Below, one piece after another: positions 58,224 through 64,000 of a stretch of DNA of 64,000 nucleotides. The notes under the pieces are model-generated. The model made no database searches and was not told the origin of the DNA. It worked only from the letters and a program-made list of their open reading frames with translations. The DNA is from Candidatus Multivorans sp. (GTDB taxonomy: Bacteria > Acidobacteriota > Thermoanaerobaculia > Multivoradales > Multivoraceae): NCBI GenBank assembly GCA_965224025.1, contig OZ245033.1:1824001-1888000 (forward strand), in the 5' to 3' direction. Position numbers and translations under genes: made by a program. The first letter of the stretch is position 1; each line of letters starts with the position of its first letter.

Positions 58224-59636
58224 CTACCCGCCGCCGCCGACCGTTCCTTCGCTCCCGTCGCTGTCCGCGCCCTGACGCTGCTGCTGGCGGAAACGGCGGA
58301 ACAGCTTGCCCTGTTCCTCCTCGCTCAACGAGTCCCAGTCGATTCCGAACTGCTCCTTGATCTGCTTCTTGAAGCTCTCGGCATTGAAGCGCTGACCGCC
58401 GAGGAAGCCGGTGTTCTCCGGCTTGTAACCCGCCTCGGCGTCCGCGTAGGACACGAAGCCGAACATCATCTCGGACGTGGTCGGACCGCCGTAGACGACG
58501 GTCTTCGTCGGATCGGGGTTCGCCGGGTTGTCGGCCGAGTTGTCCCAGGCCATCGTCAACTCGATCTCGGTGCCGGCCGGGATCCGCTTGCCGCCAGCCG
58601 GGTACTTGTAGTGCGTCTGCCAGTTGAAGTCGTAACGCGGCACGTCCAGCAGCACCTCTTCGGCGCCGTCCGGGTACTTCGCTACGTAGCGGGCCGACTT
58701 GCCGCGCAGGTGCATGTGCGGCGTGTAGCCGAGCAGCAGCGCGTCGCGGTCGAACTTCGCGCTCGTCGTGGCGACGTAGTTCGAATCGCCCGGCGGAATC
58801 TGGAAGTCGAACTTGCCCATCGCGTTGTTCTGCATCACGTAGGTCGGCTCGTAGTCCGCCGGGTAGAACCGTAGCGCCACCGAAGAGCGATCCCAGGCGC
58901 CGGTGCCGGGCCCCGGCTCCTTGTGGTAGTGCATCTGCCAGCGGATGGTGGTGCCTGGCTTGACGAGCGTGCCGAAACCGTCGTTGTGAACCGTCGGGTC
59001 GTTGCCCGGAGCGATGCCGCCGAAGGGGCGAGCGATGATGTGGTGCACGACCGGGCCGCCCGGACGGAACTCGACCGCCTTGATCCAGCGCGGCTCAGGC
59101 AGCATCTCCTCCGTGATCGCGGTCTCGAAGTTGATGTACTGATCCTCGACGTCGTCCTCGACGAAGTAGTCCTGGCCCATGTCCATGACCAGGTCCGGCT
59201 CGCCGATCGTCCAGCCGTCGGTCGACTCCCACACCTTGGCCGGCGGCGCGTCAGCCGCGTCGCCCACCGGCGCTCCGCCCTTGGCCCAGGCGATCAGAGT
59301 CGCCTTCTGCTCCGCCGTCAGCGAGCGCTCGTTCACGAACACGCCCGCATGCTCCGGCGCCGCATGCCACGGCGGCATCAGGCCGGCTTCGACCTGGCGG
59401 GCGATGGAACGCGCCCAGGGCCGTGCTTCCTGGTAGCTGGTGAATGCCATCGGCGCCACCATGCCGCCCAGGTTCGCGCCGTTCGGGCGGTGACAGACCT
59501 GGCACTTCTCCTCCAGCACGGTTTGCACCGCGCCGTAGTAGGTCGGCGTCGCCGTCGGAGCGTCGTTGTTGTTGTTCGCCGCCGCTACAGGTGCGGCCAG
59601 CGCGAGGATCAGCAACAATCCGATCGCCTTCTTCAT
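58224..59636 (-). CDS. Secreted cytochrome c / copper type II (PHM/DBH-like) monooxygenase-domain protein
   Basis: Signal peptide, CQVCH, MPPW, VVHHII, QMHYH, PHMHLRGK, YDFNWQ, SEMM. Confidence 0.8.
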   Translation of the reverse strand: MKKAIGLLLILALAAPVAAANNNNDAPTATPTYYGAVQTVLEEKCQVCHRPNGANLGGMVAPMAFTSYQEARPWARSIARQVEAGLMPPWHAAPEHAGVFVNERSLTAEQKATLIAWAKGGAPVGDAADAPPAKVWESTDGWTIGEPDLVMDMGQDYFVEDDVEDQYINFETAITEEMLPEPRWIKAVEFRPGGPVVHHIIARPFGGIAPGNDPTVHNDGFGTLVKPGTTIRWQMHYHKEPGPGTGAWDRSSVALRFYPADYEPTYVMQNNAMGKFDFQIPPGDSNYVATTSAKFDRDALLLGYTPHMHLRGKSARYVAKYPDGAEEVLLDVPRYDFNWQTHYKYPAGGKRIPAGTEIELTMAWDNSADNPANPDPTKTVVYGGPTTSEMMFGFVSYADAEAGYKPENTGFLGGQRFNAESFKKQIKEQFGIDWDSLSEEEQGKLFRRFRQQQRQGADSDGSEGTVGGGG

Positions 59637-59711
59637 GGGTCGGGGTCTCCTCGGGTCGGGTTCTTCGGGCGCTAACTGCAACACCGTACCACAACGACCC
59701 CGAGTATTGTC

Positions 59712-60476
59712 TCAGTTTGACGGAGCTGGCCGAATCCCTCGAAGATTCTTCATGACGAAAGTCGCCTGGCTCCAGGCCGGAGCAAGAGCCCGGCGCCACC
59801 AGCGGATCTTCGACACCATCTTCTTGACGTCACTCAAGGCGGTCTCACGGGTCGCCTTCAGCGATTCATACTCGCACAGGAGGCTCAGAAGCCGTTTGAC
59901 CCCGGCCGGCTCCTCAGCTTCGATGGCGATCCTCTCCGCCCTACAGTCCTGATACCGCTCCTGAGTCATGGACCGCCAGTCGATCTTCGTGTGCAGTGCC
60001 CGGAACCTCTTGGCCAGAAGATGGTGCTCGGCAGCATGATCAGCGAACCTGTACGCGAGATTTAAGGCCACACTGGCTCCAGTCAACACCGAAAGTGTCC
60101 ACGGCAGCCAAGGAAGGTTCACGACCTGTTCAAGACGTGCCGCGACTCCTCCCGCGAAGAACACGGCTCCAACCAGAGTGCCGTTGTTCCAGCCGACGAA
60201 CCAACTCCGACGCCGATCGTGATACCGAATCGACATTTGCACGCCGACCTGGAGGGCGTAGGCGTTGCCCCTTAGCTGCTTTCGTCCGCCTCCGTTGGCG
60301 GTGGCGGCGGCGGCGGCACCGGATCGTCTACTCGGAAGTCCGGCTGTGGACTCTCTCTGGGACTGTCGATCGCCGGGCTGTCCCGTCTCTCGATCCATTC
60401 GCCCCTGTCCGGCGTTTCTCTGATCGACGGCCTTTCCCTTGGCGGTGGCGTCCTTGTTCTGTCTCTGGGCACTCAT
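59712..60476 (-). CDS. SLATT-like two-TM effector protein (start uncertain)
   Basis: SIRYHDRRR, two hydrophobic helices, A..HHLLAKRF..L, RIAIEAEEP. Confidence 0.6.
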   Translation of the reverse strand: MSAQRQNKDATAKGKAVDQRNAGQGRMDRETGQPGDRQSQRESTAGLPSRRSGAAAAATANGGGRKQLRGNAYALQVGVQMSIRYHDRRRSWFVGWNNGTLVGAVFFAGGVAARLEQVVNLPWLPWTLSVLTGASVALNLAYRFADHAAEHHLLAKRFRALHTKIDWRSMTQERYQDCRAERIAIEAEEPAGVKRLLSLLCEYESLKATRETALSDVKKMVSKIRWWRRALAPAWSQATFVMKNLRGIRPAPSN

Positions 60477-60564
60477 AGCCTCCCTGACTATAGGGCAGCT
60501 TCCAGAGGCAGCTTGTCGCGCGGCTAGCCTAGCAGGCCAGGGCAGGAGATGGGGCGGCCAGAGC

Positions 60565-61519
60565 TGTCCAATGAGAAGTGAGCCTGAAGGGGGGAGTGCT
60601 TATCCAACGAGAAGTGAGCCTGAAGGTCGGGGATGGGAAACGATCGGAGGATGATCGTGTCGTTCCAGACCCAGCGTCTTCAAAGCATCGAGCAGATTCG
60701 GGAGTTCGTGTCCTCGGGAGGGGACGCGATCTTCCGGCATAAGGACCGGCGGTCGGCGTACGAGTTCTGCCGCCGGTCGCTGGTCCAGTTCCGCTATCTG
60801 TCGCTCGGCAGGGCGGACAAGGGCACAGTCAGGTCGTACCTGGCCAAGGCGACCGGGTTCTCAAGAGCCCAGATTGCCCGCCTGATTCGACAGTACCGGG
60901 AGACGGGCCGTATCGTCGATCGTCGGGGTCCGCCGCGGCACGCCTTCGAGCGCCGCTGCACGAAGGCCGACATCGGCGTTCTGGCCGAGGTTGACGAGAC
61001 CCTTGATCAAGCTGTGCGGCCACAGCACCCGGGCGGTGATGCGCCGCCAGTACGAGAAGTACGGCGATGAGCGCTTCGCGCGTCTGGCCTACATCTCGCA
61101 CGGCCACTTCTACAACCTGCGCAAGGACGACGCTTACCGGCGGCGGCGCACGACGGTCCGGAAGACGCGCGCGACGACGGTGTCGATCGGCGACCGCCGC
61201 AAGCCCCGGCCGGAGGGCCGACCGGGCTTCCTGCGCGTCGACACGGTGCATCAGGGGGAGCGGGACGGCGAGAAGGGCGTGTACCACGTCAATCTCGTGG
61301 ACGAGGTGACGCAGTGGGAGCACGTGGCGACGGTGCGGGCCATTTCGGAGCGCTGTCTGCCGGTGCTCGAGAACTCATCGAGTCCTGCCCCTTCAAGGTC
61401 CTGGGCTTCCACGCCGACAACGGCTCCGAGTACGTCAACCACCGGGTCGCCAAGATGCTGAGCGAACTGCACGTCGCCGAGTTCACCAAGTCCCGCCCCC
61501 GGCGCAGCAACGACAACGG
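60565..61519 (+). mobile_element. Degraded IS with rve/DDE integrase-core transposase (ISNCY/IS481-like)
   Basis: TGT terminus with doubled TCCAA(T/C)GAGAAGTGAGCCTGAAGG; motifs SRAQIARLI, RVDTVHQG, VDEVTQW, FHADNGSEY, KSRPRRSNDN across three frames; truncated. Confidence 0.8.
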
Positions 61520-61535
61520 AGCCGCCCCCGAAGCG

Positions 61536-61955
61536 CTACTCGGCCTCGTCGACCATCCGGTCCACGCACGCGGACCGGGCCTTGACCGCCTCCTCGAAGC
61601 ACGCCAGGTAGTCCTCGTTGCCCTCGAGGCCCCGAAGCATCCAGTCCAGGATCTCCAGTTCCTCGGTCTCGGCCTCGTTCAACGTCTCCAACAGCGCGGC
61701 TCGCGCCTGGCGCGGCTCCGGCGCCAAGAACCTCACGTCGTCGGCCGTAGTGCCGGGCACGAGCATCGCAAACGAGGCCGGCCACTCGAACATCAGGTAG
61801 GACATCCGGCCCAGGCGCTCGTCGTCGGCTTCCAGCAGGAAGGTCCGCAGCTCGGATCGCAGGTCGTCCTGAGCCGAGCAGGCCGTCAGGGCCGACAGAA
61901 GGCCGTACAGCGCCAGGAAGCCGACGCCGAACCGGGGGCCGCTACCACCGTCCAC
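61536..61955 (-). CDS. Hypothetical acidic lipoprotein
   Basis: FLALYGLLSALTAC lipobox; D/E-rich; overlaps the upstream gene stop by 14 nt. Confidence 0.55.
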   Translation of the reverse strand: MDGGSGPRFGVGFLALYGLLSALTACSAQDDLRSELRTFLLEADDERLGRMSYLMFEWPASFAMLVPGTTADDVRFLAPEPRQARAALLETLNEAETEELEILDWMLRGLEGNEDYLACFEEAVKARSACVDRMVDEAE

Positions 61956-62709
61956 AGCGGTAGCCCAAGTGCTTCTTGCCCTTGAAGTGCCGCCGGCACT
62001 CCTTCACACAGTCGCGCCGCGTGCCGTTCTGGCGACGGCAGTTGGTCACCGTCCGCCAGTTCACCCGCGAGTTGCGCCGACAGTCCTTCTTCACCTGCCA
62101 GCTCCACCGCTTCTTCCATGTCCTGCAGCCGTTGTCATCGAGCGACCACGCGCACAAGTTGACACGCCGGAACGACTCGTTGCAGTGACCCGGGTAGCGG
62201 TAGGAGCGCAGCGGCTGCGCTACCGACTGCGGCGCTGGAGCAAGCGAAAAAGGGTCGGCAGGGAGGTTCTCCACGGGGCCGTACTCCCACTCGTACCAGT
62301 CGACGCCGAACTCGATCGCCTTCTCGCGGTACCGCTGAACCACGCCGTACAGATGCATGACTTCGCTCTCATCCTAGTCTGCGAGGGCGAAGTAGCTGCG
62401 AATCTCCGCGGCCGTCCCGAGCAACGGCAGCGGCTCGGGCGGCGGCGGCGGGTTCTTCATGTACTCGCGATAGTCGCTGCCCTCCGGGGCGAATGCCTCG
62501 AACTCCTCGGCGAACGCCTTGATCTCCGCCTCGGTGTCGAGGCTGGCGAACCACTCCGCCTCATCGGAAAGCAGGTCGATCTCGGCCATTCGCAGGTGGA
62601 AGGCCAGGTCGTATTCCTCCAACATCTCCCTGTCGGTCATCGTGCTGGCCAGGACCCGGAGCTCCGAACGCATGGAGTCCGCGTCCTGGAAGTCCGGCAA
62701 CAGGCGCAC
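61942..62709 (-). pseudogene. Acidic-prodomain plus Cys-rich cationic peptide gene with in-frame TAG, 5' end lost
   Basis: ORFs 62374..62709 and 61942..62358 are in the same frame, separated by TAG plus 5 codons; C-terminal ~88 aa has 8 Cys and is K/R/W-rich. Confidence 0.55.
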
Positions 62710-63279
62710 TGGGGGTTCGTGGGGGTCTGGTCGGCCGGCAGCGCCAGCAACAGCACGGCTAGCGCTGTGCGAGACACGACAACGGAGAACGTGAAGGTCT
62801 ACTACCGGGAGGCCAACGACGGCCTGGAGGGAATCGCAGACCGCTCAGCGTTCTCGTGCAGTGACGCGGCGGCGCCCGACCCCGAGCCGGAACCGGAGCC
62901 AGACCCCGAGCCGGAGCCTGAGCCCGCGTGCAGCGACAGGACCTGCCTGTTGCAGGACGGTCGCTTCAGGGTGAAGGCGTGGTACGTGCTGGCCGGCGAC
63001 GCCAAGAGCCGAGCGGCCAACACCATAGATGTGGACCTGGGCGCGCCTGCGGGACTGTTCGCCTTCGACGCCGGAGAGCCGGAACTGTTGGTGAGAATCA
63101 CCGATCGCTGTGCGTGGAACGGGCACTACGCGGTGTACGCCGCCGCGGGGTCGGATGCCGTGCGGTACAACGTGGCGGTGAGGGACACGGAGACGAATGA
63201 GCTCAGGTGGTTCCGCGGCCGGTACGGCGCGGTGGTCATGGACAGCGCGGCGTTTCCCTGTACCGGGGCCGCTCACTAA
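62706..63279 (+). pseudogene. C-terminal fragment of an Acidobacteria-type repeat-domain surface protein with a PE linker
   Basis: CLLQDGRFRV...ELLVRITDRC..NGHY...VRDTET...DSAAFPC; (PE/PD)n linker at ~62875-62925; no start or signal peptide. Confidence 0.65.
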
Positions 63280-63318
63280 CCGGGCCGATCACGGCCCACC
63301 AACCAAGAGGATCACTGG

Positions 63319-63597
63319 ATGGGACCTGAGTGGTTCATCGCCTCCGTCACTGCTGCGCTCAAAGCCATCGAGATGTTCAGGAAGGACCCGAAACGAGACT
63401 CCGTTGACGACGACGGGATCAACAACGACCTGGCTCTTGCCGAGATCCGTTTCAACTCGACCCTTACGCTCGTTTGCGCCATGGCACTCCTGGCGGCTGA
63501 GGCCGACACTTCCAGCCCTAAGTTCGAGACCGGCCTTGAGCGCCTCCTGAAAGACGCTACGAAGGACTATGAAGAAGCGCTTTCACGCTACTCCTGA
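63319..63597 (+). CDS. Hypothetical protein (possibly truncated)
   Basis: 92-aa ORF with AAGAGGA RBS. Confidence 0.45.
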   Translation: MGPEWFIASVTAALKAIEMFRKDPKRDSVDDDGINNDLALAEIRFNSTLTLVCAMALLAAEADTSSPKFETGLERLLKDATKDYEEALSRYS

Positions 63598-63769
63598 CGA
63601 GCCCTGACAGCAGACGCGCCCGGGCCCGTCGCTCCTCCATCTCCCATGCTCGCATCACATGGACCTCGATTACCCGGAGTGCCTGCCGAACGTCATCGGC
63701 GGTCTCAAAGACCATCGGCATCTGATCCTCGCCCGCGCGAGTCCGTCTCGCCGGATTCAAACTGAGACA

Positions 63770-64000
63770 CTACCCGATACCGCGCCCGCAGCAGCAACGC
63801 CCCAAGCAGTTTGAAGAGATTGAGCGAAACGGAGTCGGCCGCAATCACCTCGTCCTCGGCGACGCCGAGCAACGGAGCAATCCGCGCCCCAATCCGTTCA
63901 GGCAGCTCGAGCCAGTCGTGCCGGTTCCAGGCGGCGACCATATCCGTTCCCCACTCCCCGGCAATCAGCCCCTCCGCGCGCGCCAGCATCGTCCGTGGAA
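63770..64000 (-). pseudogene. kynU: Kynureninase 5' fragment, truncated by the island end
   Basis: EWG...AWN..DWLELP.RIGARIAPLLG...EVIAADSVSLNLFKLL, then loses similarity at the inverted repeat. Confidence 0.8.

Follow-up and report, generated by a model that had tools for sequence, protein, structure and literature searches.

We analyzed a 64,000-nucleotide stretch of the genome of Candidatus Multivorans sp. (contig OZ245033.1, positions 1,824,001–1,888,000), hereafter the window, in which two inverted sites border a segment beside the remnant of kynU, the kynureninase gene. The genome holding the window (a 5.14-Mb assembly) is designated G000 and its contig C1, and the other G-numbers denote related genomes. 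With the 18-bp repeat taken as the unit, the segment spans positions 59703–63774 (4072 bp). We consider it probable, at roughly 80%, that this segment derives, in a decayed and non-autonomous form, from an IS1-family lineage of insertion sequences (ISs) with GGTAGTGTCTCAGTTTGR repeats and 8-bp target duplications, and that it resembles a mobile insertion cassette (MIC). The best reading links its arrival to an adjacent deletion or to a recombination event involving two copies. An earlier note made from the window sequence alone (the original prediction) had regarded the sites as the ends of a possibly undescribed integrative or transposable element. The ends match those of an already described family, and the claim of novelty thus fails at the family level; the segment represents neither an integrative element of an undescribed kind nor a new kind of mobile element.

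The two inverted sites and their IS1-family relatives

A degenerate 20-mer matched the window only at positions 59701–59720 on the forward strand (CGAGTATTGTCTCAGTTTGA) and 63757–63776 on the reverse strand (CGGGTAGTGTCTCAGTTTGA), and these two sites are identical at 18 of 20 positions, as originally described. The shuffle control for the 20-mer is circular, the pattern having been built from these same two sites. An exact search of the 5.14-Mb genome located the 13-mer core TGTCTCAGTTTGA at these two sites and nowhere else. Inverted exact 13-mers lying no more than 6 kb apart amount to 5780 k-mer pairs over the whole genome; with 5 or fewer G+C the number within 6 kb is only 55, and most of the 40 pairs listed among these 55 belong to multi-copy IS-like elements. 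The right end (GGTAGTG...) fits the pattern GGnnnTG, and the left end (AGTATTG...) keeps the TG with an A in place of the terminal G; together the ends conform to the IS1-type pattern.

The 13-mer was searched for in 300 genomes of the order. It was found at 7 sites in 6 of the 41 other same-genus genomes, versus 3 of the 258 genomes of the order outside the genus; a reversed control 13-mer had matches in 4 of the 300 genomes. GTAG stands directly upstream of the 13-mer at 5 of the 7 same-genus sites and at none of the 3 outside sites, which yields the 18-mer GGTAGTGTCTCAGTTTGA. In G017, an inverted pair of this 18-mer (L042:9996–12445, 2450 bp) encloses a 243-amino-acid open reading frame (ORF) that matches the Pfam family DDE_Tnp_IS1 (PF03400) at 35.1 bits, above the gathering threshold of 24.1. 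Perfect 8-bp duplications flank all 4 same-genus repeat pairs examined (Table 1); these 4 elements hold passenger genes, and 3 of them a full-length IS1-type transposase gene. One outer end of the G066 element is degenerate (CGTTCTG...), yet its 8-bp duplication is perfect; thus, the deviating left end in the window is not disqualified. Both terminal genes of the G017 element (a passenger gene and the transposase gene) stop at a TGA inside the repeat, and the G016 transposase gene does likewise, which makes a stop codon within the repeat a trait of the lineage.

Table 8 of PMC10425158 gives the IS1 family GGnnnTG ends, an 8–9-bp duplication, and a DDE transposase. The GGnnnTG ends, together with the 8-bp duplications and the DDE_Tnp_IS1 transposases in relatives, identify the ends as IS1-family repeats; the two sites are the 18-bp terminal inverted repeats (GGTAGTGTCTCAGTTTGR) of an IS1-family lineage with 8-bp target duplications. 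The original prediction had expected the motif to recur elsewhere, at the boundaries of elements and together with a recombinase or transposase, and this was borne out: in relatives the motif bounds elements with duplications, and the co-occurring transposase is of IS1 type.

A scan of public genomes (one genome per species) for the 17-mer GGTAGTGTCTCAGTTTG returned at least 131 stretches, the titles of which name Acidobacteriota, Alpha-, Beta-, Gamma- and Deltaproteobacteria, Bacteroidota, Binatia, Nitrospirae, Gemmataceae, and others. By our estimate, some tens of chance matches are expected in such a collection; we therefore relied on structure, not on counts, and fetched 80 loci for structure analysis. 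A homologue of the G017 transposase (41–64% identity) lies within 2 kb in 21 of these loci. Inward-facing pairs 34–1434 bp apart without a transposase match were found in 26 of the 80 loci, representing 25 distinct elements, of which 10 have a perfect 8-bp duplication and 6 more a 7/8 duplication; among the public elements are mini-elements of 34 and 47 bp with duplications of 8/8 and 7/8. Six larger pairs, each spanning two loci (2066–4790 bp), all include transposase matches, and their duplications are perfect in 4, 7/8 in one, and 4/8 in one. Altogether, 14 public pairs have perfect 8-bp duplications, and the length of the lineage members ranges from 34 to 4790 bp. Intact members of the lineage carry passengers, and transposase-less repeat pairs with cargo are common.

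Solitary copies of the repeat also occur. G000 has three further degenerate 18-mer copies (C1:150842, 1575843, and 2156593; 2–3 mismatches), none with a partner repeat within 7 kb. Solo copies are present in G063, G010, contig C3 of G066, G055, and contig C72 of G017; for these sites and one in G002, no partner with up to 4 mismatches was found within ~10 kb (less at contig ends). On contig C3 of G066 (L033:1501–1544), two IS1-type ends lie back to back, 8 bp apart (GACTGAGACACCACC cctttctc GGTAGTGTCTCAGTTTGA), and adjoin a phage-integrase fragment; the arrangement may reflect two abutting elements or, alternatively, a dimer- or circle-like junction.

Two other classifications of the motif were considered and dropped. 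An IS630/Tc1-type reading, in which the TA on both sides of (T/G)TGTCTCAGTTTGA would be the duplication, arose because an 1128-bp five-copy IS shares GTAGTGTCTC with the IS1-type repeat; it was abandoned in view of the 8-bp duplications and the IS1-type transposases. A REP/RAYT reading, suggested by the GTAG head, was rejected because there is no real palindrome and the motif bounds elements with duplications. The five-copy IS of 1.1 kb (G000:C1:1312049–1313190, 2719630–2720771, 3915956–3917097, 4006353–4007494, and 4226933–4228074) has inverted 13-mers 1128 bp apart and repeats of CTAGTGTAGTGTCTCC(G/A)ACATGG, and a C precedes every copy. The list of low-GC 13-mers also contains three ~5-kb elements bounded by inverted GGATTATGTCGAATAGTG (G000:C1:240864–245884, 1567989–1572985, and 1968052–1973033).

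Breakpoints in the kynureninase locus

Approximately 137–139 N-terminal codons of kynU are left on the right side of the segment. The fragment aligns to the full-length kynU of nine same-genus loci with 61–77% identity, and the homology to these nine relatives fades at or inside the right repeat. At the DNA level, it fades at ...GCG CGG TAT CG|GGTAGTG, that is, at the outer edge of the right site. BLAST extended the protein match to residue 146; a kynU frame running on through the repeat was rejected, since the extension rests on weak chance identities and the DNA homology fades at the repeat. The fragment is the sole match of the kynureninase profile TIGR01814 in the genome and covers profile positions 3–115 of 400. 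The cut in kynU at the right site had been noted in the original prediction, which also proposed a search for intact alleles.

The native arrangement is preserved elsewhere in the genus. In five same-genus genomes (G001, G009, G014, G015, and G023), kynU is followed directly by an orthologue (84–85% identity) of the cytochrome-like gene found left of the segment in the window, and the opposite neighbor of kynU is an efflux outer-membrane gene in 4 of the 5 (in G001 it is ~15 kb off). Comparison of the kynU–cytochrome spacer of eight relatives with the window revealed conservation from the start codon to TGGTAC and possibly ~10 nt more; the conserved spacer stops ~10–17 nt outside the left site. 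Thus, 4072 bp stand in the place of ~297 kynU codons and ~40 bp of spacer (~0.9 kb), and both sites are true breakpoints of a replaced stretch of chromosome. The sites accordingly lie at synteny breakpoints, as expected of transposon ends, and a deletion, which the original prediction had raised as an alternative, is required to account for the missing 3' part of kynU.

Both junctions are bridged by Logan contigs (record 3, 59550–60592; record 8, 62948–64000) from two runs of one sample, the only runs found to hold the stretch; this sample is possibly the source of the assembly and thus does not count as an independent one. A search for an alternative-haplotype contig in the assembly found none. 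Contigs ~3% different from the window at 58884–59497, within the cytochrome-like gene, occur in the same sample at a depth equal to or above the window's own, which indicates that related strains co-occur in it.

Two side observations concern the neighboring genes. The cytochrome/haem-binding-like gene has 25–28 matches in each of the five same-genus genomes, some of which are two pieces of one gene, and therefore has many paralogues; in Pfam it gave only sub-threshold matches to Haem_bd and Cytochrome_CBB3. The kynU frame of G023 (L004, contig C6) stops ~44 codons early with an unrelated C-terminal tail (269 versus 313 residues after NLFKLL), which suggests a frameshift.

Content of the segment

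The features of the segment and its flanks are listed in Table 1, together with the elements compared with it. The outermost cargo ORFs point outward, toward the repeats. The left one, a SLATT_4-like ORF, receives its last three codons and its stop codon (59712–59714) from the left repeat. It matches the NCBIfam profile SLATT_4 at E 8.5e-5 and 22.4 bits, below the cut-off of 55, and had no match in Pfam; feature matches of 0.94 in the Protein Atlas, to clusters with 16–33% SLATT_4 members, provide a lead only. PADLOC returned a single marginal match for this ORF (typeIV_Cas11, E 0.0073, unrelated to SLATT) and no family for the other five of the six cargo ORFs. Thus, the segment does carry cargo and has the gene orientation and terminal stop codon noted in the original prediction, and the conflict-related nature ascribed there to the cargo was overstated, given the sub-cut-off SLATT_4 likeness and the PADLOC results.

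Only 6 proteins among 5.8 billion, the window's own included, are homologues of the SLATT_4-like ORF; their C-terminal tails vary, which indicates that the ORF is full length. In metagenomes, 184 pattern matches to relatives of the protein yielded 0 confirmed ones, and a 21-mer made up of the left repeat and 4 further nt had no match. In G067, a SLATT-like gene with 50% amino acid identity is followed, 34 nt past its 3' end, by the repeat, and this is a second link between a SLATT-like gene and the repeat; the public locus L095 is letter-identical to G067 at this gene, and we counted the two as one instance. In G068 (L025:7674–10651), the SLATT-like gene has as its neighbor a homologue of the lipoprotein-like passenger gene found in the G017 element, and an adjoining ORF looks like an IS1595/ISXO2-like transposase by eye only; it seems that different mobile elements can carry these same accessory genes.

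Next to the SLATT_4-like ORF lies an IS481-like fragment, which is unrelated to the IS1-type ends. Its left end is intact (TGTCC... followed by 23-nt direct repeats at 60568–60590 and 60604–60626) and differs from the segment's own ends, as had been noted before. The frame is broken into three overlapping ORFs and cut off at 61518 after ...RRSNDN; the fragment reaches 52.9 bits with the NCBIfam profile transpos_IS481 (cut-off 224) and 25.4 bits with Pfam rve (cut-off 32.6). A full copy at G000:C1:558276–559635 is 98% identical and has a single open frame of 432 codons. The three ORFs that follow (61536–62709) belong to no family in Pfam, NCBIfam or PADLOC, the Cys-rich one has no usable match in the Protein Atlas, and the region has no DNA match above the threshold of E 1e-9 in 56 other genomes of the family. 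Positions 62875–63262 have DNA matches of 65–79% in many same-genus genomes; the family hits of the (PE)n-linker ORF are low-complexity only. Among the ORFs scanned in 58224–64000, none belongs to a tyrosine or serine recombinase family.

Table 1. Features of the repeat-bounded segment and its flanks (window positions), and elements with the same repeats in other genomes.
Feature	Coordinates	Strand	Length	Remark
Native left flank: cytochrome-like gene (58224–59684; probable ATG 59636) and conserved upstream region	58224–59702	-		
Whole repeat-bounded segment	59703–63774		4072 bp	No IS1-type transposase, no target duplication
Left terminal inverted repeat AGTATTGTCTCAGTTTGA	59703–59720	+		16/18 versus lineage consensus GGTAGTGTCTCAGTTTGA
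SLATT_4-like passenger ORF	59712–60476	-	254 amino acids	Full length; two transmembrane helices
IS481-like (rve) insertion sequence fragment	60559–61518	+		Unrelated to the IS1 ends
ORF of unknown function	61536–61955	-	139 amino acids	
Cys-rich ORF of unknown function	61942–62358	-	138 amino acids	
ORF of unknown function	62374–62709	-	111 amino acids	
(PE)n-linker ORF	62749–63279	+		Gene family multi-copy across the genus
ORF of unknown function	63319–63597	+	92 amino acids	Points at right repeat, with ~160 nt of non-coding DNA in between
Right terminal inverted repeat GGTAGTGTCTCAGTTTGA	63757–63774	-		18/18 versus consensus; GGnnnTG end
5' remnant of kynU (kynureninase)	63775–64000, continuing past the window to G000:C1:1888187	-		By homology
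G017 element			2450 bp	Perfect 8-bp duplication TAGCGTTC
G016 element			2295 bp	Perfect 8-bp duplication CCGTCCGG
G060 element			2414 bp	Perfect 8-bp duplication TGCTGGTG
G066 element			2196 bp	Perfect 8-bp duplication CCGGATTC
Transposase-less pair, DUF4440/SnoaL cargo			817 bp	Mesorhizobium calcicola
Transposase-less pair, RibD_C cargo			775 bp	
Transposase-less pair, methyltransferase cargo			1013 bp	Duplication only 6/8
Transposase-less pair, ORFs of unknown kind			1434 bp	

Origin of the segment and competing explanations

We propose that an IS1-type element with passengers, including the SLATT_4-like gene at one end, would have inserted in or beside kynU by a transposase of its own or by one acting in trans. 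A loss of the 3' two thirds of kynU, along with ~40 bp of intergenic DNA, would have followed, either (a) through an IS-mediated adjacent deletion, that is, an intramolecular transposition starting at the element end, or (b) through recombination between two copies of the same family ~0.9 kb apart. Either route would result in one element with non-matching flanks, and with the same outcome on both routes the sequence cannot separate them. IS1 itself makes adjacent deletions, and its family is known for co-integrate and adjacent-deletion chemistry. Section 5.2.1 of PMC9330008, which names the IS6 and Tn3 families, describes adjacent deletions as beginning exactly at the element terminus. An IS481-like element would have inserted later, and a further deletion would have truncated this copy; the truncated fragment implies at least one later insertion and at least one later internal deletion, and the latter could also have removed any IS1 transposase gene. 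The element would now be immobile unless a cognate transposase arrived by gene transfer. Mobilization in trans, as originally proposed, is not possible at present from the gene set of G000, which lacks the cognate transposase: a whole-genome protein search for a G017-type transposase gave no match, and PF03400 had 0 matches, with positive controls in E. coli and M. acetivorans. The absence of a cognate mobilizer from the segment had been recognized before, and it extends to the rest of the genome.

Several observations weigh against an IS1-family origin of the segment as a single element. (i) Both mismatches of the left repeat to GGTAGTGTCTCAGTTTGA fall within its outer 7 bases and include the terminal G. 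(ii) No target duplication was found at 59703–63774, in keeping with the original prediction: the 8-bp flanks CGACCCCG (59695–59702) and CGATACCG (63775–63782) are identical at only 6 of 8 positions, so that the 4072-bp segment may not have transposed as one piece. (iii) The 243-amino-acid ORF of G017 has transpos_IS1 as its best NCBIfam match (E 1.6e-21), at 77.2 bits, below the cut-off of 100. (iv) A tblastn search of the whole G000 genome with the G017 protein gave a best E of 0.8, so that no vestige of an IS1 transposase was detected. (v) The closest homologue of the SLATT-like gene, in G068 (89% DNA identity), has no adjoining repeat, and among 12 SLATT-like matches (12 loci in 10 genomes) the repeat is linked to 2 only, in the window and in G067. 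(vi) Comparison of the interior with the four same-genus elements (tblastx and blastn) revealed no likeness beyond the repeats, and comparison with the 80 public loci and 10 loci of relatives revealed, besides the repeats, only the SLATT-like genes of G068 and G067/L095. Concerning the flanks, a 6/8 match has a chance of ~1% by our estimate from base composition, and the left flank read in the direction of kynU (CGGGGTCG) equals the sequence of the relatives' kynU at the cut (CGG GGY CG); the likeness might reflect a decayed duplication and a subsequent, separate deletion, or chance.

The absence of a target duplication would also be explained if the two sites were solo ends of separate IS1-type elements, one in kynU and one in the intergenic region, with the gap between them filled by unrelated deletions and insertions. 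The mosaic interior with a truncated foreign IS and the solitary repeats elsewhere in G000 and in the relatives named above agree with this view. We nevertheless regard it as unlikely, because the ends face inward like those of one element and coincide with the two edges of the replaced segment, leaving no native DNA between them, and because the lineage includes elements of 3.7–4.8 kb with intact ends. Moreover, recombination between two such copies would yield one hybrid element in any case, which is the very outcome of route (b).

A second alternative concerns the order of events. In each of the two runs of the sample, one Logan contig joins position 59724 to 63759, skipping 4034 bp with no letters between (depths of 25.9 and 23.6; shorter side of 21 nt). 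This joint, which has no direct repeat, may derive from a co-occurring strain in which the locus has a 38-bp repeat-loop-repeat form. A 38-bp mini-element of this kind could have been present first, and the 4034-bp block 59725–63758 could have entered its loop later, as in a landing pad or cassette exchange. The homology to the G068 SLATT-like gene begins at 59725 (4–5 nt inside the inner edge of the repeat), the same boundary as that of the joint, and the public 34- and 47-bp mini-elements would provide parallels. Such an order of events is very unlikely, in our view: joint sides shorter than 30 nt often originate in repeats or in other organisms; the depths of the flanking contigs do not rise by the depth of the joint; the 4034-bp block has neither end repeats nor a duplication of its own; both boundaries lie within 4 nt of the inner edge of a repeat and may coincide for that reason alone; and a later loss of the interior would explain the joint equally well. 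The presence of related strains in the sample, seen in the variants at 58884–59497, is a further caution in taking the joint as a short form.

Apart from the order of events, it is conceivable, if doubtful, that the source community holds two alleles, the 4.07-kb cargo form and the 38-bp form in which 59724 is joined to 63759. If this were true, 4 kb of cargo would have entered or left as a single block bounded by the inner edges of IS1-type repeats, with no cognate transposase in the genome, by way of hairpin-driven "nearly precise" excision or of cargo docking into a mini-element. Nearly precise excision scars are known for the repeat-flanked transposons Tn10 and Tn5. The joint, if real, would resemble these scars as a repeat-loop-repeat remnant after transposase-free loss of the interior; it differs from them in consisting of one short-sided contig joint per run and in having no direct repeat at the joint.

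A chance inverted repeat, for which an 18/20 inverted match would be expected ~0.5–3 times in 64 kb by our uniform-composition estimate, or a pair of recombinase or invertase sites (att sites or the borders of an invertible segment) can practically be dismissed, because the 13-mer core is unique to the two sites in the genome and enriched in the genus, in 4 same-genus and many public genomes this 18-mer forms the ends of elements that have 8-bp duplications and IS1-type transposases, the scanned ORFs include no tyrosine or serine recombinase, and both flanks are broken native DNA rather than the product of an invertible switch.

The preferred reading, a decayed IS1-family derivative, can be compared with three kinds of known elements. 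First, the lineage resembles the IS1 family (prototype IS1, Escherichia coli) in its GGnnnTG ends, its 8-bp duplication, and the DDE_Tnp_IS1-type transposase of relatives; it differs in that these transposases are encoded by a single 243-amino-acid ORF, not by two frameshifted ORFs, and score below the NCBIfam IS1 cut-off. In ISfinder, the single-ORF and ISMhu11 subgroups of IS1 reach ~4.6 kb; our literature searches found no paper on the present lineage, and no paper in the library searched mentions ISMhu11. The window copy has no transposase, and its 4072 bp contrast with the classical IS1 length of 740–1180 bp in Table 8 of PMC10425158.

Second, MICs, in the description given in PMC3913671, are passenger genes between IS-type inverted repeats without a transposase gene, presumably moved in trans by the cognate enzyme, and a target-site duplication is "usually observed". 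Like the MICs (MIC231 of the Bacillus cereus group and the qnrD mic elements), the window segment has two IS inverted repeats bracketing passengers without a cognate, IS1-type, transposase gene; it does contain the dead fragment of an unrelated IS481-like transposase gene. It differs from them in having no target duplication, in the absence of the cognate transposase from the genome, and in a decayed interior with a fragment of another IS; from MIC231 it also differs in the origin of its repeats, which lies in the IS1 family and not in IS231 (IS4 family). The missing duplication can be explained by the 0.9-kb deletion that went with the replacement. On this comparison, we regard the segment as a MIC-like remnant rather than a MIC.

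Third, the passenger-carrying elements of the lineage itself, such as those in G017 (L042:9996–12445) and in a Ramlibacter metagenome-assembled genome (3728 bp), have the same 18-bp repeats and outward-pointing terminal genes as the window, a similar size range (2.1–4.8 kb), and in some cases a stop codon inside the repeat. By contrast, they keep a transposase and perfect 8-bp duplications, the window has neither, and there is no common interior.

An IS1-family element together with an adjacent deletion or inter-copy recombination would account for both the synteny break and the loss of kynureninase at this locus, and would add an unusually large and decayed example to the IS1 lineage. The lineage has letter-identical 18-bp ends across many phyla, and its cargo is often a single gene or a small set of genes with no transposase; GGTAGTGTCTCAGTTTGR can be used as a flag for such cargo cassettes and scars in environmental genomes.

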